A stretch of DNA of 64,000 nt, from contig CAYQQD010000001.1 of NCBI GenBank assembly GCA_964419575.1, positions 7,403-71,402 of the forward strand, in the 5' to 3' direction. The stretch's first letter is position 1. Each line of letters starts with the position of its first letter. The position numbers and the translations under genes were made by a program. The DNA is from an uncultured Dehalococcoidales bacterium. Lineage in GTDB: Bacteria; Chloroflexota; Dehalococcoidia; Dehalococcoidales; E44-bin46. This document shows, one piece after another, positions 17,520 through 43,123 of the stretch. The notes under the pieces were generated by a model. That model was not told the DNA's origin. It made no database searches and saw nothing but the letters and a program-made list of their open reading frames with translations.

Positions 17520-17527
17520 TTTCCCCT

Positions 17528-21708: not shown

Positions 21709-22368
21709 ATGGAACTTGAGATCCTAGAGAGCTTGAAAAGAGCCGTCCTAGAATACGATACCGAAGCTGCAACCAGCTGGGCCAGAAGAGCCGTGGCGAC
21801 AAAGGTAAATCCAGTCAAGGCTCTGGATATCCTTACAGAGGCTATCAGACAGGTAGGTGACCGCTTTGGTAGAGGAGAACTCTGGCTTCCTGATTTAGTT
21901 GGGGCAGCTGATGCCATGCAAGCTGCTATGCCCATTCTAGAAGAAGAGCTTAAGAGAACAGGGGCGAAGCGAGAAACCCTGGGGGTTGCTGTCGTCGGGA
22001 CAGTTTTTGGGGACATCCATAGTATAGGGAAGTCTATGGTATGTACCATGCTCACTGCCGGCGGCTTTGAGGTGCATGACCTGGGTGTGAATATCAAGGC
22101 TGAGGAGTTCCTTGAGGCAGTAGAGAAATATCAAGCCGACATCTTGGCTATGTCAGCCCTCTTGACCACCACCGCCGTAGAGCAGAGAAAAGTTATTGAT
22201 GCCCTCAAGGAGAAAGGTATCAGGGAGAAGATAAAGGTCATGGTAGGTGGGGGCGCCATAACCGCAGAGTTTGCCAAAAGCATTGGGGCTGATGGATATG
22301 ACCCCACTGCTCCTGGTGCTGTGGAGCTAGCCAAGAGACTGGTTGGGAAAAGCAGTTGCTCTAGTTAG
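21709..22368 (+). CDS. corrinoid (B12-binding) protein, MtaC/MttC-like
   Basis: 219 aa. 'GDIHSIGK' (DxHxxG), 'MSALLTTT' (SxL) and 'VMVGGGA' (GG), plus an N-terminal helical cap domain. Confidence 0.85.
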   Translation: MELEILESLKRAVLEYDTEAATSWARRAVATKVNPVKALDILTEAIRQVGDRFGRGELWLPDLVGAADAMQAAMPILEEELKRTGAKRETLGVAVVGTVFGDIHSIGKSMVCTMLTAGGFEVHDLGVNIKAEEFLEAVEKYQADILAMSALLTTTAVEQRKVIDALKEKGIREKIKVMVGGGAITAEFAKSIGADGYDPTAPGAVELAKRLVGKSSCSS

Positions 22369-22715
22369 CTTGGTGGCGTTGGTCAGGCATATCGCAGCAT
22401 CGATGGCGGTAAAACCTGGTACGAAGCGCATAAGCCGCCTACCGGAGGGGCTATCTCCTGGATGAGTTGTGATCCCAACACCGATGATTGCTCACTTGTT
22501 TATTGCGTTTCCACTGATTTCTGGGATGTCCTTGTCCCTCGAGACATTGATGTTCCTGTCGCTCGGATGATGGTGGCAACACCTGGGAGCGTGTCCTTAC
22601 CTCAGGTCTGAAGCTACTGGTAGATGGCAGAGAAATTGAAGTCGGACCACACCTCAAGTGTCCAGTTTCAGGGGTTCACTCCAGGCACCCCAGAAGACAG
22701 AGCAAAAAAGAATAA
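22369..22715 (+). pseudogene. remnant of a BNR/Asp-box repeat protein with an internal frameshift and no start
   Basis: Two Asp-box motifs lie in different frames: 'SIDGGKTW' (frame of 22369, stop at 22609-22611) and 'SDDGGNTW' (frame of 22560, stop at 22713-22715). Confidence 0.5.
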
Positions 22716-22800
22716 GAATAAAATCTATATGTATTTTCAAGATAGACTTTAGAACAACAAAACACTGCCACTATTTTGGTAGAGCAGTCTTAATTGGTGT

Positions 22801-24009
22801 TTAAGGGACTCTTCTTTTACTATCGCCTTTAGGGTGCATCGGCAATGCTTGTATTGGGCAATCAGGAGCAAGGCACTTCTCGCATCGCATGCATTGTATT
22901 GCCGCAGAGTCATAGCCTTCTGTGTACGGGCAAACAGCTATGCATTGAGCACAGTATATGCCGTTATCCAGCCAAGCTTGCAGGCATTGTTCCGCTTGTA
23001 TGTACCATTTCTTAACACCAGGATTATTGTTTTCGTTATATCCCTTCATTTTTCTATCACTGAAGCTTATAGCGTGGGCAGGACATGCTTCGGCACAAAC
23101 CAAGCACTGGTTACAGAATTCTGTTAATCCGAAGTCGACAGGCTTATCAGTATTTAGCGGCATATCTGTCAGGACCTTGCATAGCCTGATGCAAGAACCG
23201 TAGTCGGTTGTTATCAGCATTCCATTTCTGCCAAGCTGACCCAGGCCTGCACTTATGGCTAAAGGTATGCTTAAAGCAGTGTCATTCATACATGGGATCG
23301 CATTATAGCCAAGACCTCGTATACACTCAGCCAGAGATATAGATGCTATGCCCATCTTGGAATATCCGAGGTCGGTTCCTGCACTTACACCTGCCCCCGG
23401 GCATTGCTGGATAAGGGCTTTATCCATTTCAACAGCCATCACTACTGCCTTATTTACTGAGTTGGGGATAACTAGAGTGCCGTTTCTTTCCAGTGGTACT
23501 TCGACATTGTCAAATATAAAGCGTTTTCCTACCTGTCTTTCGTAGACCCATCTTGCGTCAAGCTCGGCAACGCCAACAAGACAGGCGCCATATAGCTTGG
23601 CAGCATGTTTTATTGCAGGGGTAAGCTTATCCGGGTCAGTTTCTGTACGCCATTTACTCATTGGTTCTGGTACAAACAGGGGGCTCCACTTTAAAAACTG
23701 AGTATTGGCATTTTGGTCGCCATAACTTCCCAAGATGTAATTTAATGCGACTGCTCCAAACCCGACAGCGTAATCTATCCGTGATTTCCCAGGTGTGCTA
23801 AGTTGAACGTTTTTCATCATGTCTGGCCCTATGTGCGCCATGATAAAACCTGCTATATCCATAATGCCAGTTACAGGTTTACCAGAAAGCCTTTCAGTAA
23901 GTGTTACGAATCCCTCCTTAGACGAATCGAATCTTTTGTATATTTTATTGTCAACCTCGTACATTTCATCTAGAGATTTCCTAGTCTTAGGCTGTGCTAC
24001 TGTAGCCAT
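22801..24009 (-). CDS. rdhA: reductive dehalogenase homologue (RdhA-like) with no TAT signal and no adjacent rdhB
   Basis: 402 aa. 'YKRFD' N-terminal block, 'CNQCLVCAEACP', and an RdhA-type second cluster 'C-x10-CAQCIAVCP'. The N-terminus 'MATVAQPKTRKSLDE' lacks RRxFLK. GAGGAGG RBS. Confidence 0.8.
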   Translation of the reverse strand: MATVAQPKTRKSLDEMYEVDNKIYKRFDSSKEGFVTLTERLSGKPVTGIMDIAGFIMAHIGPDMMKNVQLSTPGKSRIDYAVGFGAVALNYILGSYGDQNANTQFLKWSPLFVPEPMSKWRTETDPDKLTPAIKHAAKLYGACLVGVAELDARWVYERQVGKRFIFDNVEVPLERNGTLVIPNSVNKAVVMAVEMDKALIQQCPGAGVSAGTDLGYSKMGIASISLAECIRGLGYNAIPCMNDTALSIPLAISAGLGQLGRNGMLITTDYGSCIRLCKVLTDMPLNTDKPVDFGLTEFCNQCLVCAEACPAHAISFSDRKMKGYNENNNPGVKKWYIQAEQCLQAWLDNGIYCAQCIAVCPYTEGYDSAAIQCMRCEKCLAPDCPIQALPMHPKGDSKRRVP

Positions 24010-24090
24010 TTCTTAAATTCAACCTCCTCAAAATTTAAATTATAGCGATAGTTGAATGTCATAGTGGGGTGCCCCCGATATTAGTACCAC

Positions 24091-24267
24091 TTAGAATGAG
24101 AGACTGCCCACTTTTTTCAAAGGTTGCTTAACTCCTTTTATCTGGTTCTCCTCGTAGTATCTCCTAGCAAACTCTGCCGGTGTCAGGTAATCCAGCGAGC
24201 TGTGTGGTCGGTAGTTATTATACTCTTGCCTAAAGGCTTCCACAATGGTCTGAACTAGCTCATACTC
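24091..24267 (-). mobile_element. 3' remnant (58 codons) of an rve-type (IS3/IS481-like) transposase
   Basis: My own translation gives 'TIVEAFRQEYNNYRPHSSLDYLTPAEFARRYYEEN...', the conserved C-terminal integrase-core tail. It is bounded upstream by an in-frame TAA and has no catalytic domain. Confidence 0.65.
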
Positions 24268-24579
24268 TTAGGAAAAAGTACCAAGTTAGACATTACAGGT
24301 GAAACGATTGACAGTGAAGTTGATGATTCAGTATTGATAGTAAGTCAGAGGTAACGAAACGCCCTTTTGTGGAATGACAGCTGTGCCGGGTAGTTCTAAG
24401 ACTTTGCTCGGGAGGCATAGGCTTCCTTCGGCAGTATAGCATTTTACTTGAGCCCCAACGATAACCGCGCTTTGTCCTTTTATATTTAAATCTAGACGAA
24501 AGCGAGTGATTACCTCTGCAAATCCCCCTGGCTGGGGGAAGTATTACCAAGTTTAGTCAGCTAGAACCTGCAAAGACTA

Positions 24580-24608
24580 TTGACAAACTTCCCATTTTAT
24601 GCTATTGT
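24580..24608 (+). promoter_or_regulatory. candidate sigma70-type promoter of the Rrf2-led array
   Basis: TTGACA (24580-24585), 17-nt spacer, TATTGT (24603-24608), about 40 nt upstream of the ATG at 24651. Confidence 0.35.
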
Positions 24609-24650
24609 TGAGTAAAAGAATCAACTTAGTCAACAAAGGAGGACAGCTTA

Positions 24651-25091
24651 ATGAAGCTCTCTACCAGAGGACGATATGGAACCAGGATGCTCTTGGATTT
24701 GGCTCTCCAACACGATAGACCGGTTGCACTAAAAGATATAGCTCAAAGGCAGCAGATTTCACTACCGTACCTAGAGCGGCTAATAGCTCCTCTCATAGCC
24801 GGAGGCATAATACGGAGCGCTCGTGGCGTAAGGGGTGGCGTTTGGCTAGCCCAGCCTCCTGAGCAGATAAAGCTGAGCACAGTCATTCAACTTCTTGAGG
24901 GTTCAGTTGCTCCGGTAGAGTGTGTTAATGATCCAGCGATATGCTCCCGCTCCGAATTATGTGTCACCCGGGACATCTGGACTAAGATCAAAAGGGCGAT
25001 AAACGAGGTCTTGGAGTCTACGACCTTGCAGGATTTGGTCGAGGAGCAAAAGAGAAAAGAACGACATGAACAGGTGACATACTACATATAG
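24651..25091 (+). CDS. Rrf2-family transcriptional regulator (IscR-like, likely cluster-ligating)
   Basis: 146 aa. 'MKLSTRGRYGTRMLLDLA' wHTH, with three Cys in 'CVNDPAICSRSELC'. Confidence 0.85.
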   Translation: MKLSTRGRYGTRMLLDLALQHDRPVALKDIAQRQQISLPYLERLIAPLIAGGIIRSARGVRGGVWLAQPPEQIKLSTVIQLLEGSVAPVECVNDPAICSRSELCVTRDIWTKIKRAINEVLESTTLQDLVEEQKRKERHEQVTYYI

Positions 25092-25142
25092 GTTTACTAG
25101 ATTAATAGCTCGGATGGAGTATGTAGAGGGGGAATAACTTCT

Positions 25143-26153
25143 ATGATTGAGAGGTATTCAAGGCAGACCCTTTTTGAGGGTATAGGTCAAGGAGGGCAAA
25201 GGAAACTAGGCAATAGTTGTGTGGCGATAATTGGCTGCGGTGCCTTGGGAACAATTATTGCTACTTCGCTAGTGCGTGCCGGTGTGGGTAAGGTCAGGAT
25301 TATAGACCGAGATTTTATAGAATACCACAATCTGCAGCGGCAAGTCCTTTTTGACGAAGATGATATACGGAATGGGCTGCCGAAGGCAATAGCCGCCGAG
25401 CGGCATCTAAGGAAGGTAAACTCCTCGGTCGAAATTGAAGGCATAGTCGCCGATGTGAACTTTACCAACGTTGAAAGGTTCATCACTGGCGCAGACCTAA
25501 TCCTGGATGGATTGGACAATTTTGAAACTCGTTTTCTTATTAATGATGTCTCGCTAAAGCATGGAATCCCGTGGGTCTATGGTGGAGCTATCTCTTCTTC
25601 TGGAATGACGATGAACATAATCCCGGGCGAAACTCCTTGCTTCCGGTGCTTCTGCTCTACCGCACCAGCTGCAGGAGTAATGCCTACTTGCGATACCGCC
25701 GGGGTAATCGGTCCTGTCCCTTTCATTATCGGTTCTCTTCAAGCCGCTGAGGCACTGAAGATACTGGTTGGAGCTAAAGAAATTAATCGGCGGCTTATAT
25801 GTATTGATGTTTGGACAGGGAGCTTTGAAAAGCTTGAAATAACTCCTTACCACGATTGCCCCGCCTGCTTGGGAAGATACGAGTTTCTGGAGGGAAAATT
25901 TGGAGTAAGAACCACTTCACTTTGTGGTCAAAATGCGGTGCAGGTGCTAAATCCCGAGATAGAAAGGCTCTCTTTCAAGGAGCTTGAAAGTCGGCTTAAG
26001 GTGGTGGGGGAGGTTACCTATAACGAGTTCATGCTACTTTTCAGGGTTGATGGTCGAGAAATGGTTATCTTTCCTGACGGAAGGGCTATCGTTAAAAACA
26101 CCAATGACGAGTCACTAGCACGGGGGCTCTATGCCAAATACATTGGAACATGA
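25143..26153 (+). CDS. ThiF/MoeB/HesA-type E1-like adenylyltransferase with a ~90-aa C-terminal extension
   Basis: 336 aa. 'IIGCGALGT' loop, 'YSRQ' start and two CxxC pairs ('CFRCF', 'CPAC'). The tail is unassigned. Confidence 0.8.
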   Translation: MIERYSRQTLFEGIGQGGQRKLGNSCVAIIGCGALGTIIATSLVRAGVGKVRIIDRDFIEYHNLQRQVLFDEDDIRNGLPKAIAAERHLRKVNSSVEIEGIVADVNFTNVERFITGADLILDGLDNFETRFLINDVSLKHGIPWVYGGAISSSGMTMNIIPGETPCFRCFCSTAPAAGVMPTCDTAGVIGPVPFIIGSLQAAEALKILVGAKEINRRLICIDVWTGSFEKLEITPYHDCPACLGRYEFLEGKFGVRTTSLCGQNAVQVLNPEIERLSFKELESRLKVVGEVTYNEFMLLFRVDGREMVIFPDGRAIVKNTNDESLARGLYAKYIGT

Positions 26154-27357
26154 GAGTAATACCGTGATTTACCTAGATAATGCGGCGACATCCTGGCCCA
26201 AGCCAGAAAGTGTCTACCAGACCATGGATGAGTTCTTGAGGACAAAAGGCGGTAATCCTGGTCGTGGTAGCCACAGTATGGCTGTGGCGGCCAGAGAGAC
26301 AGTTGAAGAAACGCGGCTGCTTGTGGCGCGCCTTATTAGTGCCCCAGAAATGGAGCGAGTCATATTTACTCTGAATTGCACCGATGCCTTGAACCTGGGG
26401 CTAAAAGGACTGCTTAAGCCAGGGGACCACGTAATCACCAGTTGTATCGAGCACAATTCTGTGGTTCGCCCTCTTAGAAAGCTCGAACAGCAAGGGGTCA
26501 AAGTAAGTAGATTACCGCCTTCCCCGAAGACTGGAGCTGTGTCTGCCCTGGATATTGAGGAAGCGATAACTAGAGACACCAGACTGGTAGTGGTTACTCA
26601 TGCCTCTAACGTAACCGGGGTCATTCAACCCGTTGAGGAATACGGAGTAGTTGCTAGGGAGTATAACCTAATTTTCATGGTAGATGCGGCGCAAACTGCT
26701 GGTAAGTATCCTATTGATGTCCAAGCGGGTAACATTGATTTACTCGCCTTTTCCGGGCATAAAGGACTACTAGGCCCTCCAGGCACTGGGGTGCTTTATG
26801 TGGGCAACCGGGTTGACCTTGATTCATTGCGTGAGGGTGGCACCGGCTCATATTCGGAACTGGAGGAGCAGCCAGCCACTCTGCCTGATAGGTATGAAAG
26901 TGGGACAGTGAATAGTGTCGGCATTAGCGGGCTTGGCGCTGGACTGAAATATATCTTCAGCCAAGGTTTGACGAGGATTCGTACTCATGAGCGATGCTTG
27001 ATAGACAAGCTAGTCGAGGGTTTATCTAACATACCTAGATTAATTCTTTATCGGGCTAAAGATGGGTTTAATCAAGCACCTGTGGTCTCCTTTAACATCG
27101 AGGGATATGAGCCAGGGGAGGTAGAAGCCATTCTGGACCAAGCATTTGATATCAAGGTGAGGGCAGGGCTTCATTGTGCCCCAGCAGCTCACAAGACCTT
27201 AGGTACTTATCCATTAGGTACCGTACGTTTAAGTCCCGGATACTTCAATACTGTGGAAGAGATTGCTCTGACGCTTCAGGCCTTGGGGAAAATTGCAAGG
27301 ATGAAGCCTGTCAAGGATTTACCGGAAAGCAGAAGAGCAGTTTACAACAGGTTATGA
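26131..27357 (+). CDS. class-V aminotransferase-fold cysteine desulfurase family protein
   Basis: 408 aa. 'YLDNAATSWP' and PLP-Lys region 'FSGHKGLLGPPGTG'. The start is uncertain (an alternative GTG lies near 26164). Confidence 0.75.
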   Translation: MPNTLEHESNTVIYLDNAATSWPKPESVYQTMDEFLRTKGGNPGRGSHSMAVAARETVEETRLLVARLISAPEMERVIFTLNCTDALNLGLKGLLKPGDHVITSCIEHNSVVRPLRKLEQQGVKVSRLPPSPKTGAVSALDIEEAITRDTRLVVVTHASNVTGVIQPVEEYGVVAREYNLIFMVDAAQTAGKYPIDVQAGNIDLLAFSGHKGLLGPPGTGVLYVGNRVDLDSLREGGTGSYSELEEQPATLPDRYESGTVNSVGISGLGAGLKYIFSQGLTRIRTHERCLIDKLVEGLSNIPRLILYRAKDGFNQAPVVSFNIEGYEPGEVEAILDQAFDIKVRAGLHCAPAAHKTLGTYPLGTVRLSPGYFNTVEEIALTLQALGKIARMKPVKDLPESRRAVYNRL

Positions 27358-27381
27358 GATTAACATAAGGAGGAAATTGAG

Positions 27382-28371
27382 GTGGCAGAGATAATCCAAG
27401 AAGTGGAGAAGCTTCAGTATAAGACTATAGAAATACCTAAGCTAACTAGAGGTATAGCCAGGGACTCTACCGAGCTAATCGGAAACACACCCTTGGTCAG
27501 ATTGAACCGAATAACCCAAGGGTTAAAGGCAGGGGTGGTGGCAAAGCTTGAGTCTTTTAATCCTGTAGGCAGTGTGAAAGACAGGATTGGAGTGTCAATG
27601 ATTGTTGATGCTGAAGAGAGGGGGCTCATTAATAAAGACACGGTTATCGTCGAGCCCACCAGCGGCAATACAGGCATTGCCCTAGCCTTTGTTTGTGCCG
27701 CCAGAGGATATAAGCTTGTCCTCACCATGCCTGACACCATGTCCATGGAGCGTAGACAACTCCTAGCCATATTTGGCGCTGAGCTGGTGCTAACTCCCGG
27801 GGCAGAGGGGATGCCAGGAGCGGTCAGGAAAGCCGAGCAGCTGGTGGCTGAAAACCCGAATTACTTTATGCCCCAGCAGTTTAAAAACCCGGCAAACCCA
27901 GAGGTACACCGACTGACCACAGCCGAGGAGATCTGGCGAGATACTGAGGGGAAAGTGGATATTGTAGTCGCAGGGGTAGGAACTGGAGGGACGATTACCG
28001 GAGTAGCTGAGGTAATCAAACCTAAGAGACCACAATTTAAAGCTATTGCCGTTGAGCCTGCTGATTCCCCGGTTCTTTCTGGAGGAAAGCCAGGAGCCCA
28101 TAAGATTCAGGGCATCGGGGCTGGTTTTATCCCTGATATCTTAAGATTAGATTTAATTGATGAAATTATCGAGGTGACCAATGAAGATGCCGGAATAATG
28201 GCCAGGAGGTTAGCCAAAGAGGAAGGGATATTGGCTGGCATATCCTCGGGAGCAGCAACTTGGGCAGCATTAGAGGTAGCCAAAAGGCAGGAAAACGAGG
28301 GCAAGCTCATAGTGGTAATTCTACCCGACACTGGTGAGCGCTACCTATCTACCTGGCTCTTTCAAGAATAA
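27382..28371 (+). CDS. cysK: cysteine synthase A (O-acetylserine sulfhydrylase)
   Basis: 329 aa. '[11 protein letters not shown]' PLP-Lys motif and 'GTGGTITG'. AGGAGG lies 8 nt before the GTG. Confidence 0.9.
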
Positions 28372-28399
28372 AGAAGTTCAATAAAAAGGTGGGTTTATT

Positions 28400-29116
28400 A
28401 TGTTTAAGACTTTAAGGGAAGATATTCAAACGGTATTTGCTAAGGACCCGGCGGCAAGAAGTGTGCGGGAGGTAATATTCTGTTATCCAGGGCTACGTGC
28501 CTTATGGTATCATCGTGTGGCTCATTTCCTCTGGCGCCACAGGCTTAAATTTCTAGCTCGCTTCTGCTCCCATACTAACCGCTTTCTAACCGGTATCGAA
28601 ATCCACCCCGGAGCCAAAATCGGTCGACGCTTCTTTATAGACCACGGGGCAGGGGTAGTGATCGGAGAGACAGCAGAAATAGGAGACGATGTTCTGATAT
28701 ATCAGGGAGTTGTCTTGGGTGGGACTAGTTTAAAGAAGGAGAAGCGCCATCCCACTGTTGGCAATAATGTGGTAATTGGAACCGGCGCAATAGCTCTGGG
28801 TGCTATCACTATAGGGGATGGAGCTAAGATTGGGGCGGGTTCAGTGGTAATAAAATCCGTTCCACCTGGAGCCACAGTTGTCGGAGTTCCAGGAAGGATT
28901 GTCGAGGAACGCCACAAGCCACTTGCAGACTTAGAGCACGGGGAGTTGCCTGACCCGATAGCAGAAGCTATAAGGCTTGTCCTAGAGGAGCAGGGAAGGT
29001 TAGGAGAGCGCGTGAAAAGGCTGGAGAGTCTGAGTGGTATCGTAGTCCCCGATGATGAAGTGAGGAAGATAAGGAAGGAAACTATAAAGGGCTTCAGCGG
29101 AGGAGGGGGAATATGA
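28400..29116 (+). CDS. cysE: serine O-acetyltransferase
   Basis: 238 aa. '[30 protein letters not shown]' followed by hexapeptide repeats. Confidence 0.9.
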
Positions 29117-30255
29117 GATTTGAAACAATAGCCATTCATGCTGGAGGGAGGCCGGATGCGACATTTGGTGCCGTCTCAGTGCCCATCTACCAGACATCGA
29201 CCTTTGTCTTTGAAGATGTGGGTAAGACAAGAGGCTATGACTATTCACGCACGGCGAATCCGACAAGAAAGGTTCTAGAAGATACCATTGCCCAACTCGA
29301 GGGTGGAAAGGCAGGGTTTGCCTTTGCCACCGGTATGGCTGCCGAAGCCACGGTTATGCACCTGCTTGAGGCTGGTGATCACGTAATTTCGGGGGATGAT
29401 GTCTACGGGGGAACTTATAGACTTTTTCAGAATGTAATGAGGGCCTTTGGGCTGGAGTTCACCTTCTTGAGGATGGATAGTAGGCAAGCGATTGAGGAAG
29501 CGATAAGGCCTAATACTAGGATGCTGTGGCTAGAGAGCCCATCTAATCCATTACTGAATATTATTGATGTAGAAATGGTGGCTGATGTTGCCAAAAAGCA
29601 CGGCATATTGACAGTGATGGATAATACTTTTGCCACCCCCTATTTCCTGAGACCAATTGACTTTGGGATTGATCTTGTTGTTCACTCTACAACCAAGTAT
29701 CTCAACGGACACTGTGATGTTGTTGGGGGTGCTGTGGTAACCACCACTGATGAATTAACCGAGAGGGTTCAATTTCTCCTTAATGCCATGGGAACCTGCG
29801 CCTCTCCCTTCGATTGCTGGCTGGTGCTTCGGGGAATTGAGACTCTCCCGGTAAGAATGAAGCAGCATGAGGCGAACGCAATCGCCGTAGCTAATTATCT
29901 CAGAGAGCACCTTCCAGTAAATAGGGTGTTCTACCCTGGGCTTGAGTCTCATCCAGGACATGAAATCGCCAAGAGGCAGATGAAGGGGTTCGGTGGGGTG
30001 GTGTCGTTTGAATTAAAAGGGGGGATTCAGGCAGCTAACAACTTTCTGAGAAGAATCAAGGTCTTTTCCCTGGCAGAATCGCTTGGTGGTGTTGCTTCCC
30101 TTGCTGAGCACCCAGCTACCATGACTCACGCTTCGATGCCAAAGGATTACCGGGAAAAAGTAGGAATCACTGATGAACTAATCAGGTTGTCGGTTGGGTT
30201 GGAAAATGTTGATGATTTAATTGAGGATTTACACCAAGCGCTGGAGGTTAGCTGA
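29113..30255 (+). CDS. Cys/Met-metabolism PLP enzyme (cystathionine gamma-synthase / beta-lyase / gamma-lyase family)
   Basis: 380 aa. '[16 protein letters not shown]' PLP-Lys motif. ATGA overlap with cysE. Confidence 0.85.
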
Positions 30256-30267
30256 AGGAGTGGAGTA

Positions 30268-31491
30268 GTGTCATACGCTAGAGCTTTACGTTGTCGAAAA
30301 TGCGGGCAGGAATATCCTTTGCAGCCTCTCAACCTGTGCGACTTCTGCCTTAGCCCGTTGGAGGTCAGCTATGACTATAAGTCTATGGCTAAAGCCGTAA
30401 GTCGGGAGAAACTCAGCGGAGGAACGCTGAGCATGTGGCGCTATCGCGATATGCTGCCAGTGGAGGGCAAGGAAGTGGACATTGGTACCGGCTTTACCCC
30501 TCTAGTCAAAGCCGATAACCTTGGGCATGAACTGGGGCTAAACCGCCTCTATATTAAGAATGACTGCCTTAATCCAACATACTCCTTCAAGGACAGGGTA
30601 GTCTCAGTTGCCGTTACCAAGGCGCGCGAATTCGGGTTTGACACCATAGCCTGTGCCTCAACGGGCAACCTAGCGGCTAGCGTAGCCGCCCATGCCGCCA
30701 AGGCGAATATGAAAGCTTATGTTTTCGTCCCCTCTGAGGTAGAACCGGGTAAGCTGGTAGGAGCAGCAATCTATAACCCAGTTCTGGTGACCGTTAAAGG
30801 AAGCTATGACGATGTCAACCGTCTCTGCGCCCGGCTGGTGGAAAGATATAACTGGGGTTTCATCAACATTAATCTCCGACCCTACTATGCTGAGGGGAGT
30901 AAGACCTTGGGCTATGAGGTGGCTGAGCAATTAGGGTGGCGTGCCCCTGACTGTGTGGTGGCTCCCGCCGCCTCGGGGCTGCTCTTTACCCGAATATGGA
31001 AAGGCCTAGACGAGCTAGCTATGCTTGGCTTAATCGAAGCAGTTAATACCCATATGTATCTCGCTCAGGCTACTGGCTGCTCGCCCATAGTTAACGCCTT
31101 TCAGGCGGGCTCTCTCCATGTGCACCCGGTAGAGCCAGACACTATTGCCAAGTCCATAGCCATCGGGAACCCGGCTGATGGTTATTATGCGTTGAGGGTT
31201 GCCAGGCAGTCAGGGGGTGGTGCTTGCGCTGTCACCGATGAGGAAGCAATTGCCGGGATGAAGCTACTGGCTCAAACTGAGGGTATCTTTGCTGAAGCAG
31301 CGGGTGGAGTAGTTATTGCCGGGCTCAAGAGGCTGGCAACTTCGGGGGTGATTAAAAGGAACGAGCTTACCGTGGCTTTCATCACTGGGGCAGGACCCAA
31401 GACACAGGAAATAGTGTCCGGCATCGTTCAGCCCTTTGCTGTCCAGCCCAACCTGGAATCATTTGAGGAGGTGCTCGGTGCGCGAGCTTAA
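30268..31491 (+). CDS. threonine-synthase-family PLP enzyme with N-terminal zinc ribbon
   Basis: 407 aa. 'CRKCG...CDFC' ribbon, 'YSFKDRV' PLP-Lys and 'CASTGN'. Confidence 0.8.
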   Translation: MSYARALRCRKCGQEYPLQPLNLCDFCLSPLEVSYDYKSMAKAVSREKLSGGTLSMWRYRDMLPVEGKEVDIGTGFTPLVKADNLGHELGLNRLYIKNDCLNPTYSFKDRVVSVAVTKAREFGFDTIACASTGNLAASVAAHAAKANMKAYVFVPSEVEPGKLVGAAIYNPVLVTVKGSYDDVNRLCARLVERYNWGFININLRPYYAEGSKTLGYEVAEQLGWRAPDCVVAPAASGLLFTRIWKGLDELAMLGLIEAVNTHMYLAQATGCSPIVNAFQAGSLHVHPVEPDTIAKSIAIGNPADGYYALRVARQSGGGACAVTDEEAIAGMKLLAQTEGIFAEAAGGVVIAGLKRLATSGVIKRNELTVAFITGAGPKTQEIVSGIVQPFAVQPNLESFEEVLGARA

Positions 31492-31547
31492 GCCTGTCAC
31501 ACTCCCCACGTTCAATATTAATCCCAAGAAAAATAAAGGGGGCTAAG

Positions 31548-31790
31548 ATGGTCAAGAGACGAGTAATGTTTACCTTTCCCCAGGAGCTTATTAAGGAGCC
31601 CATCATTTATACTCTCAGCCACCAGTTCAAGGTAGTGACCAATATTCGCCGCGCTGATATATCTGAGGATAAAGGGTGGGTGGTATTGGAGCTAGAGGGG
31701 GATGAGAAGGAAATCGAGCAGGGGATTGCCTGGGTAACTGCCAAAGGGGTGAGGGTCGATCCTGTTATTGGAGATATTGTGGAGGGTTAA
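31548..31790 (+). CDS. stand-alone NIL-domain protein
   Basis: 80 aa. 'VVTNIRRADISEDKGWVVLELEG...' matches my memory of the NIL domain layout. Confidence 0.6.
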   Translation: MVKRRVMFTFPQELIKEPIIYTLSHQFKVVTNIRRADISEDKGWVVLELEGDEKEIEQGIAWVTAKGVRVDPVIGDIVEG

Positions 31791-31793
31791 GCG

Positions 31794-32960
31794 GTGAGAA
31801 GGATATATCTTGATTATGCTGCCACGACGCCGACGCATCCCGAGGTGGTGAAGACGATGCTGCCCTATTTTACCGATGCCTTTGGTAACCCTTCAACCAT
31901 CTATTCCTACGGTCAGGAGGCAAAGGGAGCTATTGAGGAGGCAAGGAGTAAGGTTGCCGACCTTATTGGCGCCCAGAGCGAAGAGATTGTCTTTACCAGC
32001 GGGGGGACAGAGGCAGATAACTTTGCCTTAGAGGGTGTGGCTTTCGCCAAAGAGCCCAAAGGGAACCACATCATTACTAACTCCATTGAGCACCACGCAG
32101 TCATAGAGACGTGTAAGTTCTTGGAGAGAAGAGGGTTCAGAGTAACCTACCTGCCGGTAGATGAGTATGGCTTGGTTGACCCTGGCGATGTCAAAAGGGC
32201 TATCATTGATAAGACCATCCTCATTTCGGTAATGCAGGCTAACAATGAAGTAGGCACCATTGAGCCGATAGCTGAGATAGGTAGGATTACCAAGGAGGCC
32301 GGAATCTATTTTCATACCGACGCAGTACAAACCGTAGGGCACATCCCAGTAAATGTGAATGAACTTGGGGTGGATTTACTGTCTATGTCGGCACACAAGC
32401 TCTATGGTCCTAAGGGGGTTGGAGCATTATATGTTAGAAAAGGGACAAAACTGATTCCCTTTATGCATGGAGGTGAGCAGGAGAGAAGGCGACGAGCAAG
32501 TACTGAGAACGTCCCTGGGCTTGTCGGCTTTGGCAAAGCTGCCGAACTTGCCCAGCAGGAAATGACCGAGGAAGCAGAGCGGTTGACTTATCTTCGTGAC
32601 CAGCTTATTGAGGGTCTTCTAGAGCGGATTGACCACATTCGCTTAAATGGTCATCCCATAAAGAGGCTACCCAACAACGTCAATATAAGTGTTGATTATG
32701 TAGAAGGGGAGTCAATGCTTCTAAATCTTGACTTGGAGGGCATTTGTGCTTCTACCGGCTCAGCTTGTAGCTCATCAAGCCTTGAGCCATCCCATGTGCT
32801 CCTGGCACTGGGCCTCTCCCCTGAGCAAGCGCATGGTTCCTTAAGGTTTAGTCTAGGGAGGTGGACGACTGAAGAGGAGATAGGTCGAGTCCTGGAGGTT
32901 CTGCCCAAGATTGTATCTAAGCTCAGAGATATGTCACCGCTTTTGAAAAGCCATAGATAG
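31794..32960 (+). CDS. nifS: cysteine desulfurase NifS/IscS-type
   Basis: 388 aa. '[15 protein letters not shown]' PLP-Lys and catalytic loop 'STGSACSS'. Confidence 0.9.
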
Positions 32961-32971
32961 GAGAGGAAAAG

Positions 32972-33379
32972 ATGCGTGATGTATGGTCGCTATACAGTGA
33001 TAAGGTGATGGAACATTTCAAAAACCCCAGGAATGTAGGAGAGATAGAGAATCCCGATGGCGTCGGACACGTGGGCAACCCGGTGTGCGGCGATATCATG
33101 GAGCTTTACATCAAGGTAAATGATAGCACCATCGTTGATGCCAAATTCAAGACTTTTGGCTGTGGAGCTGCCATCGCCACCAGCTCTATGGTCACCGAGA
33201 TGGTAAAAGGGAAGAGTATAAGCGAGGCGCTGGAAATCTCCAATCGGGCAGTGGCTGAAGCGTTAGACGGGCTGCCACCATTCAAGATGCACTGCTCAGT
33301 TCTAGCTGAGGAGGCACTAAAATCAGCTATTGAGGACTACCTCGCTAAGAGCTGTCCAACTAAGGTAGCTCAAACATAA
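32972..33379 (+). CDS. iscU: Fe-S cluster scaffold IscU/NifU N-terminal type
   Basis: 135 aa. Three scaffold Cys in 'GNPVCGD', 'FGCGAAIA' and 'MHCSVLA'. Confidence 0.9.
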   Translation: MRDVWSLYSDKVMEHFKNPRNVGEIENPDGVGHVGNPVCGDIMELYIKVNDSTIVDAKFKTFGCGAAIATSSMVTEMVKGKSISEALEISNRAVAEALDGLPPFKMHCSVLAEEALKSAIEDYLAKSCPTKVAQT

Positions 33380-33394
33380 AAGGGAGGTGCTAAA

Positions 33395-34177
33395 GTGGCA
33401 CAAAAGTTCAGTCCAGCGGGAGAAAAGGATATAAGTAGTGCTATAGTCGCTGAGTTTGCCGCTCAGTTTCAAGAATATGTAGAGAGCGACTGTATTATCG
33501 TCGGTGGTGGTCCAAGTGGACTCATGGCAGGTAGGAATTTGGCAAGAGCGGGCAAGAGGGTTCTTATTGTCGAACGGAATAACTATATTGGGGGTGGCTT
33601 CTGGATTGGGGGGTTCCTGATGAACACGGTAACCGTAAGACATCCGGGAGAGAGGATTTTAGATGAGCTCGGTATTCCGTACAAGGCGGTTAATAAGAAT
33701 CTGTGGGGGGCGAACGGTCCGCATGCCTGTTCAAAGCTTATTGCTTCAACCTGCGATGCCGGCGTTAAATTCCTCAATATGGCAAACTTCGACGACCTAG
33801 TATTAAGAGGAGATAATCGTGTTGCCGGAGTTGTGGTTAACTGGACACCTGTCTCAGCATTACCAAGAGAGATAACCTGCGTTGACCCCATTGCCTTGGA
33901 GTCGAGAGTGGTTATCGACGCTACTGGTCATGATGCTCAGGTAGTGAGGAAATTGGAGGAGAGGGGGCTAATCAAAACCAAGGGTTATGGTGCTATGTGG
34001 GTAGAGAGGTCGGAAGACCTAGTCGTTGAGCATACAGGAGAGGTTCACCCGGGGTTGATTGTCACCGGCATGGCGGTATCAACAACCTACGGATTGCCTC
34101 GGATGGGCCCAACTTTTGGGGCTATGCTCTTATCGGGGGAAGTGGCGGCTGAGATTGCCCTAGAGAGTTTGAGATGA
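33395..34177 (+). CDS. thi4: Thi4-type thiazole synthase, His variant (non-suicidal type)
   Basis: 260 aa. '[13 protein letters not shown]' and '[11 protein letters not shown]', with His at the position of the yeast sulfur-donor Cys. Confidence 0.85.
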
Positions 34178-34974
34178 AAGTTCGCCGAATAGAGAAGGTC
34201 CTCTTGTACGATGAAGGTGCGGCTGAAGAATTAAATACAGAGGAAATCGCCAAATATTTGAAAGAGAAGCTAGGGAAAGCACAAGTCAAGGTGAGAGGGA
34301 ATCCCTTTGCTCTTTGGCTTGAGAAAAGCTCAGATTATGCAAGAAAGCTTGCATCTATCAAGATTCAAGATGTGAATAGACAGATAGCCCCTGAGCAGGA
34401 ACCTCTCTATGGCGAGGTTTCGTATGAAGAAAGAAGAATTCTGGGAAAAACCAAGTCCTTTGGAGTGCTCTACGACGGTTTTCAACTTCAAAGGGTCTTT
34501 TCAGAACTCATAGCACGGGAGGAGTGCTCTCTTGAGGTTGTTCACATCTTCTTTACCAACCGTTTGTTTGCTACCTGGGAGGAGAATAACAACCGGTACC
34601 ATGCCAGGACAAGCATGTATGGTATCCCCTCGGTTATCTCAACTACAGGGCTGGTAGAGGCACCGGCCAAGCCAAGGGAGTATTACCTTCTTAAGCAGCA
34701 GTATGAGATGCTAGGAAAGGACCTGTTGGAACTCAAAGAGAGATTGAAGGGAAGTTTTATTGATTACGGGGATGAACGACTGACCGAGGTTATAAAGGGA
34801 TATGCAATGCAGGCGGTTTTCTATCATCTTGTTGGTGACCCTTTTTGCGAGGATAAGGGTTGTCGGCTATATAACGCCCACTGGCAAGAGGAACTCATCT
34901 TTGCCCAGCTTGAGAGCGAATACGAGTTTTGTGAACGCCATACCAGAATCTTAGATAATTTACGTAGGAAATGA
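34174..34974 (+). CDS. hypothetical protein. The C-terminal Cys/His motif resembles a degenerate archaemetzincin-like zinc site.
   Basis: 266 aa. '[20 protein letters not shown]...FCERH'. ATGA overlaps link it to both thi4 and the ThiS-like gene. Confidence 0.6.
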
Positions 34975-35165
34975 AAATGAGCATTCCGGAAATAGAGGTT
35001 AAAGAGGATAAGACAATAAAGGAGCTTATGGATGAGCTCCAGCTCTCTACTGCTCCCATCCTGCTGATGGTGGATGGGAGAATTTTCTACCCAGATGTGA
35101 TAAAGGGCAGAAGGTTAAGGAAAGAGGATAAAGTAACATTAATCCCACTGATAGCGGGGGGATGA
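34971..35165 (+). CDS. ThiS/MoaD-like sulfur-carrier protein ending in Gly-Gly
   Basis: 64 aa. '...EDKVTLIPLIAGG' followed by the stop, and a beta-grasp-like pattern 'TIKELMDEL...LLMVDGRIF'. Confidence 0.75.
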   Translation: MKMSIPEIEVKEDKTIKELMDELQLSTAPILLMVDGRIFYPDVIKGRRLRKEDKVTLIPLIAGG

Positions 35166-35208
35166 GGGAGGCACAACCAATTAAGGTCTTGGTGAAGGAG
35201 GTAGTTTG

Positions 35209-36402
35209 ATGAAGCTATATCAGATGGTCGTAAAAGACATTATACGCCGCAAAAGGCGGGTGTTATTTGCCATCATCGGTGTAATTATCGGCACTATGAC
35301 GGTCGTTGGCATATTTACCATTGCCCGCGCTGGTGAAGCAAGAATGTATGAGCAGCTGGAAAAATATGGCCCTAACTTAACCGTCATACCAGCCATAACT
35401 AACGTTGATGTGAATTTAGGTGGCGACCTGAGTCTTGGGACTTTGTCAGTCGGCGAAAACTGCATCCCCGAGGAAAAATTGCCTGAGATCAGAAGGATAA
35501 CCGATAACGCAATAAGGGAGGCGCTGGGCATTGAAGATGAGGGCAATATTGCCATCATTGCCCCCAAACTCTACGTGAATACCGAGGTGAAAGGGGTATC
35601 GGTGATGGTAGTTGGGGTGGAGCCTCAAGAGGAGAGCAAGATTAAGACATGGTGGAGAATTCGGGAGGGGGAATATCTTGAGCGTGCCGACCAGGCGCTG
35701 ATCGGAGCGGTAGCTGCTGAACTTCTGGAGCTTAGCGAAGGTGATACCATTGCTCTTAACGGCACCGATGTAACCATTACCGGTATTCTCGAGGAGACAG
35801 GTTCCAACGAAGATTACCAGATTTTTGTTCCCCTAGCCACATTGCAGAGGGCGTTTAACAAAGAGGGGCTGATTTCTTCAATGGATATTCGTGCCCTGTG
35901 CAATGCATGCCCGGTGGTAATGATCGCTGACAGTATAAATAGTGAGATTCCCGGGGTTCGGGCAATTGCGGTAAAACAAATAGCTAGCGCTGAAATGGAG
36001 ATGCTGGGGAGAATAAACAGGTTTATGCTGGCTCTGGCCGGAATTACACTGGCTGTTGGCTTGTTTGGGGTAGGCAACACGATGATGCGGTCGGTAAATG
36101 AAAGGATCAAAGACATCGGGATAATGAGAGCAGTAGGGGCGTCACACAATCAGATAATGAGGGTCTTTCTTTACGAGGCTATTATTATTGGTGTATTGGG
36201 GGGTATCTTCGGGTATTGGGCAGGAACCTTGCTGGCATTTGGGCTTGGCCCGGTGCTCTTTCAGATATCAGCCATTAGTTACGTACCCCAGTACTTCCCC
36301 CTAGCACTGGGCTTAGCTATCTCTGTTGCCGTCATAGCCACCATATATCCAGCCTTTCGCGCCACCAGGGTTAAGGTGGCTGATTCCTTTAGGTCTTTGT
36401 GA
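35209..36402 (+). CDS. FtsX/MacB-type ABC transporter permease
   Basis: One N-terminal TM, a ~230-aa extracytoplasmic domain and three C-terminal TMs. GGAGG lies 7 nt before the ATG at 35209. Confidence 0.85.
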   Translation: MKLYQMVVKDIIRRKRRVLFAIIGVIIGTMTVVGIFTIARAGEARMYEQLEKYGPNLTVIPAITNVDVNLGGDLSLGTLSVGENCIPEEKLPEIRRITDNAIREALGIEDEGNIAIIAPKLYVNTEVKGVSVMVVGVEPQEESKIKTWWRIREGEYLERADQALIGAVAAELLELSEGDTIALNGTDVTITGILEETGSNEDYQIFVPLATLQRAFNKEGLISSMDIRALCNACPVVMIADSINSEIPGVRAIAVKQIASAEMEMLGRINRFMLALAGITLAVGLFGVGNTMMRSVNERIKDIGIMRAVGASHNQIMRVFLYEAIIIGVLGGIFGYWAGTLLAFGLGPVLFQISAISYVPQYFPLALGLAISVAVIATIYPAFRATRVKVADSFRSL

Positions 36403-36413
36403 GGTGGGACAAG

Positions 36414-37097
36414 ATGTTAGAAATCAAGAATGTAACCAAGATTTACGGCGAGGGTGAAACTAAAGTAGTTGCCCTTAATAATGTTTCGCTTCGGGTAGAA
36501 AAAGGCGACTTTATAGCTGTTATGGGGCCTTCTGGAAGCGGTAAGTCCACCCTTTTGAATGTCATCGGTGGTCTGGACCGCCTGTCCAGCGGTGAAGTGC
36601 TCCTGGAGGGGAAGCGTATCGATAACCTAGATGAAAATGCTCTTGTTGAGATTAGAAGGGGGAAAATCGCCTACGTTTTTCAGCAGTATCATCTGATTCC
36701 ATCCCTTACTGCCTTGGAGAATGTGCTCCTGCCTTTAATCTTTGCTGAGACAAGTGGGAAGGCTGAGAGGGCACTGAATATTTTGAAAAGGGTGGGCTTA
36801 GAAAAAAGGGCGAAACATAAACCCAGCCAGTTAAGTGGTGGGGAACAACAGAGGGTAGCCATTGCTAGAGCTCTGGTTAATAACCCGTTACTTGTCCTGG
36901 CTGATGAGCCAACAGGTAATATGGACCAAGAAACGGGTCAGAAAATCTTGCATTTATTCGACCAGCTAAATAGAGAGGGGCACAGCATTATTATGGTTAC
37001 CCATAACCCTGAGATAGCCAAATATGCTGGAGAAATTATAGTCCTGCGTGATGGGCAAGTTATAGATAGGATTAATCAAAGAGGAGGAAACCAATAA
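36414..37097 (+). CDS. ABC transporter ATP-binding protein (MacB/LolD-type)
   Basis: '[12 protein letters not shown]', Walker A 'GPSGSGKST', '[15 protein letters not shown]', 'LADEPTGN'. GAGGTG lies 7 nt before the ATG at 36414. Confidence 0.9.
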
Positions 37098-37655
37098 ATG
37101 TTAAAGAGAATCATTGCCTGGTTTATGTTATTACCGCTGGTTGTGATGTTGCTTCTAGGCGCTTGTGCTGGCCCAACGTCAACACCAGCACCGGAGTCGA
37201 CTCCAACACCAGCGCCGACACTGGAACCGACACTACCACCAGCACCAATGCTGACATTGGAACCACCAGCACCGGCAGCCTTCCAGATTACCGATTTAGA
37301 AATCAATCCGACAGTGGCTAGCCCTGGACAGAGGGTAACTATCAGCGCTAAGTTGACAAATACTGGTGACACTGGGGATAGCTACACAATGGAACTGTTT
37401 ATAAATGATGTTGCTGAGGTAGCAGAGGTAGCAAAGGAAGTAACTATACCTTCTGGTCAAACCAGGGAGTTGCGTTTCTCAGAGTTTTTCAAGACACCGG
37501 GTACTTATCGAGTTAACTTGGGTGAGCTTATCGGACAATTTGTGATAGTTGAGTCAGGCGAGCTAACACAATCAAGTACCCCCGGCTGCTGCTCCGGTGC
37601 GCCTGATTCCAGTACCTCGGATAGTTCTAGTTGCAGGTGTTGTTCACGCCGTTAG
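37098..37655 (+). CDS. lipoprotein with a Pro/Thr-rich linker, a CARDB-like Ig domain and a Cys-rich C-terminal tail
   Basis: 185 aa. Lipobox 'LLGAC'. 'ASPGQRVTISAKLTNTGDTGDSYTMELFIND' is CARDB-like. The tail reads 'PGCCSGAPDSSTSDSSSCRCCSRR'. Confidence 0.7.
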   Translation: MLKRIIAWFMLLPLVVMLLLGACAGPTSTPAPESTPTPAPTLEPTLPPAPMLTLEPPAPAAFQITDLEINPTVASPGQRVTISAKLTNTGDTGDSYTMELFINDVAEVAEVAKEVTIPSGQTRELRFSEFFKTPGTYRVNLGELIGQFVIVESGELTQSSTPGCCSGAPDSSTSDSSSCRCCSRR

Positions 37656-37727
37656 GAGTTATTCGAGCTTTTCTCCCACTGTGCCTGCTTCCACTACTCT
37701 ATTTACACACAAAGGAGGATACAATAG

Positions 37728-38303
37728 ATGTTAAGAAAAATAGGAATAGGAGCCTTGGTAGTTTCGCTAGTATTAATCCTTGCCGGGTGTGCTGGCTCAC
37801 CACCAGCATCGGCACCTACTCCGCCGCCGGCACCAGTACCTACGTCACCGCCATCACCAGCCCCTACTCCGCCACCAAGTCCAAAGCCATCGGGGCCAAT
37901 AGAGGCGACATGGATTGAGCCACAACTAGATGGCGATACTGTGTCCATCCCAGTAAGTGAGATTGAGGACAATTGGAATACCCACTTTAAGCTGAGGACA
38001 AGGGTTGATGATAAGAGTGTCAGGCTGAATTTCATGGCATACATACTTGATGGAGAAATCTACGTTCGGGCGAACGTTTGCCCCCCTTGTCGCTCGGTAG
38101 GCTATGCTCTTGAAAATGACATCCTAATATGCGATACGTGTGCGACTACCTTCAATGCCAAAACCGGCGACGGTATTGGGGGAGCCTGTGTTGATTATCC
38201 CAAGGCAGTCGTGCCATATGAAATCACTAATAACCAATTAGTAATGAATGGAGCCGACCTAATAACTGCCTACGAGGACACCCTTAACCCCGGCTGGCCC
38301 TAA
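37728..38303 (+). CDS. lipoprotein with a Pro-rich linker and a Cys4 domain (DUF2318-like)
   Basis: 191 aa. Lipobox 'LAGC', and 'VCPPCRSVGY...ICDTCATTF' with two CxxC pairs. Confidence 0.65.
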   Translation: MLRKIGIGALVVSLVLILAGCAGSPPASAPTPPPAPVPTSPPSPAPTPPPSPKPSGPIEATWIEPQLDGDTVSIPVSEIEDNWNTHFKLRTRVDDKSVRLNFMAYILDGEIYVRANVCPPCRSVGYALENDILICDTCATTFNAKTGDGIGGACVDYPKAVVPYEITNNQLVMNGADLITAYEDTLNPGWP

Positions 38304-38320
38304 ATTAAAAGAAAAGAGGA

Positions 38321-42627: not shown

Positions 42628-42648
42628 TAAAGGGTGCGACATTTACAA

Positions 42649-43122: not shown

Positions 43123-43123
43123 T

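Follow-up and report, generated by a model that had tools for sequence, protein, structure and literature searches.

A stretch of 64,000 nucleotides from an uncultured Dehalococcoidales bacterium (contig CAYQQD010000001.1, positions 7,403 to 71,402; hereafter the window) carries 13 plus-strand genes at 24651-35165 that combine an E1-type adenylyltransferase and a carrier protein ending in GG with enzymes of cysteine, homocysteine, Fe–S cluster and thiazole synthesis. We find that this cluster is a real, modular, Rrf2-controlled sulfur operon, and that it is a variant assembled from parts mostly known already, most of them from systems published in 2024–2026. With moderate confidence, we read the cluster as one Rrf2-controlled operon joining five modules that would draw on reduced sulfur. 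By family membership, CysE and CysK would form cysteine from O-acetylserine and sulfide. A MetB/C-family enzyme, a MetM-type paralog of threonine synthase (ThrC) and a NIL-domain protein would constitute a homocysteine module starting from O-phosphohomoserine, and NifS and NifU would assemble Fe–S clusters. In the fourth module, an E1 of the PRK12475 type would adenylate a 64-aa ThiS-family carrier (ThiS64), and a co-translated desulfurase would convert it to the thiocarboxylate. In the fifth, a Thi4 thiazole synthase of the active-site-Cys type and a DUF6775 protein would make the thiamin thiazole, with the ThiS thiocarboxylate as a likely sulfur donor or repair agent, according to an unproven hypothesis of the Hanson laboratory. 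Functional assignments throughout are drawn from sequence, synteny and the literature; gene families were assigned with Pfam and NCBIfam, and absences at the window level refer to the 64 kb. Related loci and contigs used in the comparison are labelled with L-numbers (L001, L164 and so on), and the ThrC-like gene is written ThrC′ in gene orders.

Operon organization and regulator

A first-pass annotation of this DNA had described 13 plus-strand genes with gaps of up to 56 nt and four overlaps, and recomputing the coordinates and gaps reproduces this layout exactly. The intergenic distances from gene 1 to gene 13 are 51, −23, 24, 28, −4, 12, 56, 3, 11, 15, −4 and −4 nt. The identical 13-gene order is found on the independent metagenome contigs L001, L002, L084 and L088, and nearly all matches in protein homolog searches with the window proteins are close Dehalococcoidia relatives from metagenome-assembled genomes. 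There is only one good promoter match, at the operon head just 5′ of the Rrf2 gene (TTGACA-17-TATTGT with a TG, 24580-24636, plus strand). It overlaps an 11-nt inverted repeat, TTGTTGAGTAA-N10-TTAGTCAACAA, which is a candidate Rrf2 operator. The TTGACA…TATTGT promoter and the GTTGA…TCAAC region that follows it are both conserved 5′ of the Rrf2 gene in L084, L164, L166 and L167, four related operons that likewise have this gene at their head. Shuffled sequence contains terminator-like sites at least as often, and the operon has none between its genes. Riboswitch control (S-adenosylmethionine [SAM], thiamin pyrophosphate [TPP] or T-box) is rejected, since an Rfam search of 24000-35300 gives zero matches at the gathering threshold or at E ≤ 1.

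The regulator itself (24651-25091, plus strand; Pfam Rrf2, 1.3e-39) is IscR/CymR-like and carries a C-x6-C-x5-C motif. Among the Rrf2, CymR and IscR models, it passes only the Rrf2 superfamily cut-off and falls below both equivalog cut-offs (131.7 versus 195 bits for CymR and 108.9 versus 207.6 bits for IscR). The earlier proposal of a single unit under an IscR-like regulator therefore stands as regards the Rrf2-type head and the conserved promoter and operator, but not as regards an equivalog-level match to IscR or CymR. At the other end, the string of co-directional genes runs on past 35165 with gaps of at most 125 nt as far as NadA at 44216, so the end coordinate 35165 is a soft boundary.

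A MetM-type paralog of threonine synthase

The ThrC-like gene (30268-31491, plus strand) is, judged from its sequence and neighbourhood, a MetM-type paralog and not an ordinary threonine synthase. Solved canonical ThrC structures (350-360 aa) align only with residues 57-404 of its product, and the first ~55 residues form a CxxC…CxxC zinc ribbon, a trait of the whole family. To place the protein, as the first-pass annotation had proposed, we scanned one genome per species and obtained 80 loci encoding proteins with 53-81% identity to the window protein, which span Chloroflexota, Nitrospirota, Cyanobacteria, Actinomycetota and others. These loci were analysed by calling open reading frames (ORFs), by searching with the window proteins and with a profile built from small downstream ORFs. 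A carrier of ~91 aa that matches Pfam ThiS and ends in GG (…SIVPAVAGG) lies 3′ of the ThrC-like gene in 70 of the 80 loci. A NIL gene adjoins the ThrC-like gene in 33 loci from four phyla, and neither carrier nor NIL is present at seven. The gene order is ThrC′-carrier in Cyanobacteria and actinobacteria, ThrC′-NIL-carrier in Chloroflexi, and CysK-E1-ThrC′-carrier-NIL-E1-JAB in Nitrospirota.

The combination of ThrC′ with a ThiS-family GG carrier is, on gene content, the genomic signature of the MetM/MetO/Mec/MoeZ route, which leads from O-phosphohomoserine to homocysteine in Streptomyces albulus (Hasebe et al. 2024, as described in the citing literature) and is included in GapMind. The first-pass annotation had pointed to a MetM/MetO system, and the citing literature indeed treats it as an established pathway of S. 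albulus. For a homolog from Microcystis, published work reports 51.6% identity to S. albulus MetM and a metO-like gene next to it. Our Microcystis locus (L072), whose protein has 57% identity to the window protein, shows the same ThrC′-carrier arrangement as published. The window protein belongs to the MetM clade by a link that runs through this Microcystis homolog, secondary citations and synteny.

Canonical short ThrC genes are found beside the paralog in six of the 80 loci. In a neighbour-joining tree, these six proteins form a distant outgroup on a long branch, and the window protein nests within the Chloroflexi carrier-plus-NIL clade; the placement thus sets it inside the carrier-linked paralogs and apart from canonical ThrC. 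Paralog and canonical ThrC are told apart by 25 alignment columns, and at every one of these the window protein carries the residue of the paralog. For example, the canonical N-x-x-P-Y-R is matched by R204-P-Y-Y207 in the window protein. The Arg of the canonical motif presumably binds the substrate phosphate in Thermus ThrC, which we take as a lead only and not as a test. The tree position, the extra zinc ribbon and the 25 fixed differences together separate the window protein from orthologs of characterised ThrC. We consider a MetM-type role in homocysteine synthesis probable for this enzyme, which is accordingly annotated as a predicted O-phosphohomoserine-dependent homocysteine synthase.

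The MetB/C enzyme, the NIL protein and exchange with HcyBio

The gene 5′ of ThrC′ encodes a Cys_Met_Meta_PP enzyme of the cystathionine γ-lyase (CGL)/γ-synthase (CGS) group (29113-30255, plus strand; Pfam 1.3e-160). Since its best solved relatives include both CGL and CGS enzymes and it falls below the cut-off of every NCBIfam equivalog, it may act either as a lyase or as a synthase. In the subclade this gene always travels with ThrC′, and it is gained and lost along with the ThrC-like and NIL genes. The order CysE-MetB/C-ThrC′-NIL is kept in L004, L005, L101, L104, L120 and L136; L125 and L133 keep the MetB/C and ThrC′-NIL genes but not the full contiguous order.

On the 3′ side of ThrC′ lies a stand-alone NIL-domain protein of 80 aa (31548-31790, plus strand; Pfam NIL, 6.6e-15), which contains no Cys and ends in …VEG. 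The partnership of NIL with the ThrC-like gene, absent from the first-pass annotation, is conserved. In L077 (Syntrophaceae) and L080 (Planctomycetia), NIL is even fused directly behind the carrier GG, as ThiS(1-91)-NIL(96-163) (MetO::NIL ORFs L077:11288-11803 and L080:6334-6906), and a JAB gene lies near the L077 fusion; in such fusions the GG would become available only through cleavage by a peptidase. NIL domains otherwise occur in the methionine importer MetN and in the NIL-ferredoxin of the HcyBio pathway. In the accessible literature, which does not include the primary MetM paper, we found no paper linking NIL with MetM-like genes. A role of NIL as the sulfur carrier is rejected, because the protein has neither a Cys nor a GG end and MetO is a ThiS/CysO-like carrier. 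From its sequence and context, we take NIL to be most likely a regulatory or accessory subunit that binds methionine or homocysteine.

Relatives found via E1 and DUF6775 share the frame Rrf2-E1-desulfurase-[carrier slot]-CysK-CysE-[X]-NifS-NifU-(Thi4-DUF6775). Slot X is occupied by MetB/C-ThrC′-NIL in the window (29113-31790), L084, L088, L101, L104, L120, L125, L133 and L136. L100, L116, L117, L164 and L166 have HcyBio (DUF39) there, in some cases accompanied by a distant ORF that contains NIL; both homocysteine systems are present in L116. HcyBio is the catalytic protein of an alternative homocysteine pathway in methanogens and Desulfovibrio, which has also been proposed for Dehalococcoides. 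Because the block containing ThrC′ is swapped in place with the homocysteine-forming HcyBio, the exchange supports homocysteine synthesis as the role of MetB/C-ThrC′-NIL. The homocysteine module is thus proposed on the basis of orthology, of the clade-wide linkage to MetO and of this replacement. The window contains no HcyBio, no second ThrC and no second E1.

Thi4, DUF6775 and the 64-aa carrier

Thi4 (33395-34177, plus strand; Pfam Thi4, 3e-66) is of the active-site-Cys or 'suicide' type. The Cys of its ITCVDP motif aligns with that of Arabidopsis thaliana THI1 (QSCMDP), whereas catalytic Thi4s have His or Met at this position, and TCVDP is present in all 54 Thi4 relatives that adjoin DUF6775. 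The next gene, counted but left unnamed in the first-pass annotation, encodes the DUF6775/DUF7001 protein (34174-34974, plus strand; Pfam 1.4e-94) and overlaps both of its neighbours by 4 nt. Its invariant residues are C225, C230, H236, C253, H256 and R141-Y-H-x-R145, giving a conserved Cys3-His and no HExxH. There are zero sequence matches among solved structures, and structure prediction gives an archaemetzincin-like fold without the HExxH site (bioRxiv 10.1101/2025.09.23.678117). A function as a Mec-like carrier hydrolase is unlikely, given that HExxH is missing and conservation does not extend to the residual His. Across 80 metagenome loci, the pairing of Thi4 with DUF6775 hardly varies.

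The last gene encodes ThiS64 (34971-35165, plus strand; Pfam ThiS, 27.5 versus 22.5 bits), which ends in …LIAGG, overlaps the DUF6775 stop codon by ATGA and is the only carrier in the window. A ThiS of 61-64 aa lies directly 3′ of DUF6775 in 19 of the 67 contigs with room for it, as well as in L164; the fetched loci show it at no other position, and the ATGA overlap is usual among these relatives. A PRK12475-type E1 accompanies ThiS64 in all six cases with enough context, following Thi4-DUF6775-ThiS64 directly in L112 and L129; in L120 the E1 directly follows Thi4-DUF6775. ThiS64 matches the MetO-like profile at its C-terminal tail only (last 17 residues). In L164, Thi4-DUF6775-ThiS64 is retained even with HcyBio as the homocysteine module, and a second, separate carrier of 94 aa adjoins the CysK ortholog. 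Because L164 keeps ThiS64 at this position with HcyBio as the homocysteine module, we assign the 64-aa carrier primarily to Thi4/DUF6775, an association that the first-pass annotation did not contain.

The trio Thi4-DUF6775-ThiS is already described in a preprint, which that annotation likewise did not mention. In this survey of more than 400 genomes, Cys-type Thi4 clusters with DUF6775 (two-thirds of genomes), ThiF, CysK, ThiS, NifS, NifU, MOSC and CysE; DUF6775 is its commonest neighbour, and Dehalococcoidales examples are included (bioRxiv 10.1101/2025.09.23.678117). Oliveira-Filho, Hanson et al. propose that a ThiS thiocarboxylate or a persulfide could replace the sacrificial Cys and that DUF6775 would be a metal partner, unproven proposals accompanied by a pilot complementation result (bioRxiv 10.1101/2025.09.23.678117). 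The window has the corresponding arrangement, with DUF6775 adjacent to Thi4, ThiS next to it and the ThiF-type E1 upstream in the same operon; no ThiG is found among the annotated window ORFs. Whether ThiS64 and the E1 serve Thi4 is, in our estimate, evenly balanced.

The E1, desulfurases and cysteine synthesis

The E1, a class-V desulfurase and a GG carrier, as named by the first-pass annotation, are all present by Pfam and NCBIfam. The E1 is a ThiF/MoeB-type adenylyltransferase of the PRK12475 subfamily (25143-26153, plus strand) with Pfam ThiF at residues 5-240 and no rhodanese domain, and NCBI names a 92%-identical protein ThiF. The C-terminal tail of ~90 aa noted earlier as unassigned is real, as ThiF ends at residue 240, but it is not without an assignment: PRK12475 (NCBIfam) matches residues 1-335 over the full length of its 338-position model. 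No solved E1 structure reaches beyond about residues 2-269 of the window protein. The tail of ~95 aa (25863-26150, residues 241-336) is compact and alpha+beta in an AlphaFold2 (AF2) model, with a pLDDT confidence score of 84.5. The model rejects a rhodanese or beta-grasp domain, and the only matches to solved structures are weak, to single TATA-box-binding protein (TBP) repeats with E ~0.03, and give no function. The same tailed E1 also occurs near ThrC-like genes in the Anaerolineae loci L024 and L034, which contain neither MetO nor NIL.

The E1 gene overlaps by 23 nt with that of a class-V cysteine desulfurase family protein (26131-27357, plus strand; TIGR01977, EF2568 type, 469.7 versus 377 bits), which presumably supplies the persulfide for thiocarboxylation of the carrier. 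L084, L088, L096, L164, L166 and L167 all keep this E1-desulfurase pair. A second desulfurase, of the NifS type (31794-32960, plus strand; TIGR03402, 600.2 versus 530.8 bits), is followed by the NifU/IscU Fe–S scaffold protein (32972-33379, plus strand; TIGR03419, 213.5 versus 187.9 bits).

Regarding cysteine, the first-pass annotation had suggested a thiocarboxylate-dependent synthesis and a placement of the CysK protein against CysK and CysM, and the placement by equivalog scores and solved relatives does not support the suggestion. The protein is an O-acetylserine sulfhydrylase A (27382-28371, plus strand) that exceeds the TIGR01139 cysK cut-off (482.7 versus 351 bits) and misses that of CysM (298.9 versus 394 bits), and its best solved relative is Mycobacterium tuberculosis CysK1 (2Q3B, 466 bits). 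The adjoining serine O-acetyltransferase gene, cysE, is intact (28400-29116, plus strand; TIGR01172, 244.6 versus 210.7 bits), and the carrier slot between desulfurase and CysK is empty, with a 24-nt gap. Since CysK is CysK1-like with CysE beside it, carrier-dependent cysteine synthesis is unsupported in the window. It may exist in relatives, because L164 and L167 fill the slot. In L164 the slot holds a 94-aa GG carrier (12255-12539) and CysE is reduced to a 30-aa N-terminal remnant (13604-13696). In L167 it holds a 151-aa Cys-rich protein ending in …LLGGG (L167:12213-12668).

Alternative readings

Several observations weigh against the five-module reading. The ThrC-like protein passes the NCBIfam TIGR00260 thrC cut-off (284.6 versus 167 bits), and the Microcystis homolog showed both threonine synthase and deaminase activities in vitro. 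The window yields no hit with a MetO-like profile derived from 56 carriers, and a JAMM (JAB) hydrolase and a rhodanese are not matched anywhere in it. Five of the 12 clusters that have both the ThrC-like and the Thi4-DUF6775 modules are without carrier or E1 within 10 kb, so neither acceptor strictly needs a local relay. Lastly, the E1-desulfurase pair persists in L166 and L167, both without Thi4 and the ThrC-like gene; thus, the E1 may serve other clients or several carriers.

The missing carrier is shared with the nearest relatives, as L004 (81% identity) and L005 (70%) also have no adjacent MetO-type carrier. Elsewhere in the subclade it is present, in the orders ThrC′-NIL-MetO-Thi4-DUF6775-E1 (L120) and ThrC′-NIL-Thi4-DUF6775-MetO (L133). 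On this distribution, the MetO-type carrier found behind 70 of the 80 MetM-like genes appears to have been lost from the window lineage. The MetM-like enzyme must therefore draw its sulfur from the 64-aa carrier or from free sulfide, unless the genome encodes a MetO elsewhere. We regard it as doubtful that ThiS64 also serves the MetM-like enzyme. A bolder reading, in which one E1-desulfurase-ThiS64 relay would feed two acceptors, namely a MetM-type synthase without MetO and JAMM but with a NIL subunit, and a Cys-type Thi4 that with DUF6775 would be catalytic and not suicidal, seems to us unlikely.

The thrC score, together with ~40% identity to solved ThrCs over residues 58-404, the in vitro activity of the Microcystis homolog and the lack of a MetO-type carrier in the window, would also suit a genuine threonine synthase. 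SAM regulates plant threonine synthase, and on this model NIL would be a methionine or SAM sensor that partitions O-phosphohomoserine between threonine and methionine. The MetB/C enzyme, a constant companion of the ThrC-like gene in the subclade, would then be the homocysteine or cystathionine synthase that uses O-phosphohomoserine. We give this reading a low probability: the long branch and 25 fixed differences set the clade off from canonical ThrC, a GG carrier lies 3′ of the gene in most loci, canonical ThrC stands alongside in six of them, and the module is interchangeable with the homocysteine-forming HcyBio and not with a threonine gene. In a reading along the lines of the first-pass annotation, the 64-aa carrier would stand in for MetO and work solely with the ThrC-like enzyme and/or CysK, and Thi4 would act on its own, as a suicide enzyme or with sulfide. 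A GG carrier is the normal companion of the ThrC-like family, and a MetO-type carrier stands after DUF6775 in L133 and between NIL and Thi4 in L120. Two-module clusters have ThiS64 only (four) or MetO only (three) and never both, numbers that are too small for significance; we do not count this apparent mutual exclusion as evidence. The same carrier position in L164, where HcyBio is present and a separate 94-aa carrier sits by CysK, argues against such a dedication, as do the restriction of the MetO-profile match to the last 17 residues and the CysK1-like CysK with CysE adjoining. We find it the least credible of the alternatives; of carrier-dependent homocysteine synthesis, the MetM-type assignment is supported by orthology and context, and the carrier partnership is uncertain because the carrier tracks Thi4/DUF6775 in relatives.

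Equally improbable to us as a true threonine synthase is that E1, desulfurase and 64-aa carrier make up a thiocarboxylate system of general use, serving molybdopterin (MoaD/MoeB-like) or tRNA thiolation, and that the co-location with Thi4 and the ThrC-like gene reflects shared sulfur and Fe–S regulation only. Such a system would account for the E1-desulfurase pair of L166 and L167, which also lack DUF6775 and ThiS64, and for the two-module clusters without a local carrier. MOSC, FdhD, MnmA and a molybdopterin oxidoreductase recur beside the clusters, and three of these are found in the window. However, ThiS64 is seen only directly 3′ of DUF6775, mostly with the ATGA overlap, and the E1 directly follows these genes in L112, L129 and, behind Thi4-DUF6775, L120. 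MoaE, as the first-pass annotation had noted, is not among the annotated window ORFs, and TtuA/NcsA and a second carrier were likewise not found in the window, in a scan that covered ORFs of at least 110 aa.

Neighbouring genes

Downstream of the carrier, 35206-44216 contains a MacB/FtsX permease, an ABC ATPase and two Pro/Thr-rich lipoprotein-like ORFs (one FtrD-like), and then a 678-aa Fe–S flavoprotein, a 757-aa molybdopterin oxidoreductase, MOSC and NadA, all co-directional. In L088, MOSC-NadA directly follow the carrier, so the transporter and Mo-enzyme block looks inserted in the window. L164 has its transporter/FtrD genes upstream of Rrf2. In L101, L104, L106, L116, L117, L124 and L130, DUF6775 is followed by MnmA (tRNA 2-thiouridylase) and then by MOSC, FdhD and NadA, a further sulfur- and Fe–S-dependent set on the same operon.

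Upstream, a ~50-aa C-terminal remnant of an IS3/rve-type transposase (…YNNYRPHSSLDYLTPAEF…; 24100-24260, minus strand) lies between a dehalogenase-like gene and the operon promoter. The region 21709-24009 comprises a B12-binding protein (219 aa, plus strand) adjoining this 402-aa reductive-dehalogenase-like Fe–S protein (minus strand), whose match to Pfam Dehalogenase is weak (5.6e-4, below cut-off). A heterodisulfide-reductase/Mvh-like block occupies 9161-20584 on the minus strand; it includes two HdrA-like flavo-Fe–S proteins of ~1010 aa, each gene being preceded by an FlpD (MvhD-like) gene, as well as CCG-domain and Fe–S subunits. Also on the minus strand, 56457-59977 encodes a glycyl-radical enzyme of 822 aa (PFL-like plus Gly_radical) together with its radical-SAM activase, and 6430-8601 a radical-SAM protein, whose N-terminal zinc ribbon is of the HMPTM type, next to a class-I methyltransferase.

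Significance and comparison with known systems

The operon is a compact test case for two open questions and not a new kind of system. One is whether a 'suicide'-Cys Thi4 can take sulfur from a ThiS thiocarboxylate, and what role DUF6775 plays, which bears on the energy cost of thiamin synthesis and on plant engineering. The other is the spread and variability of the recently found MetM route to homocysteine. In the accessible literature we did not find NIL described as a frequent partner of MetM-like genes, sometimes fused behind the carrier GG, nor the MetB/C-MetM-like-NIL block and HcyBio trading places in one operon slot, nor lineages that keep the MetM-like enzyme without MetO. Annotations widely call these ThrC-like genes 'threonine synthase', a label by which metabolic reconstructions of Dehalococcoidia would be misled.

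Compared with the bacterial ThiF/ThiS/ThiG thiazole pathway, the operon shares a ThiF-family E1 and a ThiS-family GG carrier, but its thiazole synthase is Thi4 and not ThiG; Thi4 is not known to use ThiS. As regards molybdopterin sulfuration by MoaD/MoeB, a Mo enzyme and a MOSC gene lie downstream, and the annotated window ORFs include no MoaE. With CysO/CysM/Mec/MoeZ of M. tuberculosis the operon has in common the logic of an E1, a GG carrier and a pyridoxal-phosphate (PLP) sulfhydrylase. The relative L164 has a 94-aa carrier directly 5′ of the CysK ortholog and a decayed CysE, whereas in the window a CysK1-like CysK, an intact CysE and an empty carrier slot set the operon apart. The HcyBio (DUF39/COG1900) and NIL-ferredoxin pathway uses the same operon slot in the five loci named above and also contains a NIL domain. 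However, its catalytic protein is unrelated, its substrate is aspartate semialdehyde and not O-phosphohomoserine, and its NIL is fused to ferredoxin and only distantly similar (45-52 bits).

With the published Thi4-DUF6775-ThiS/ThiF clusters (bioRxiv 10.1101/2025.09.23.678117), the operon shares a Cys-type Thi4 followed by DUF6775 and, nearby, ThiS, ThiF, CysK, CysE, NifS, NifU and MOSC. It differs from them in the ThrC-like/MetM and stand-alone NIL genes in mid-operon, which are not among the neighbours listed in the survey. With the MetM/MetO/Mec/MoeZ route of S. albulus, it shares the ThrC-homologous PLP enzyme of the carrier-linked clade, with an E1 and a sulfur source nearby. Within the 64 kb it has no MetO-type carrier, JAMM protein (Mec) or rhodanese-fused E1 (MoeZ); it adds instead the NIL protein, a stand-alone desulfurase and the 64-aa carrier behind Thi4-DUF6775.

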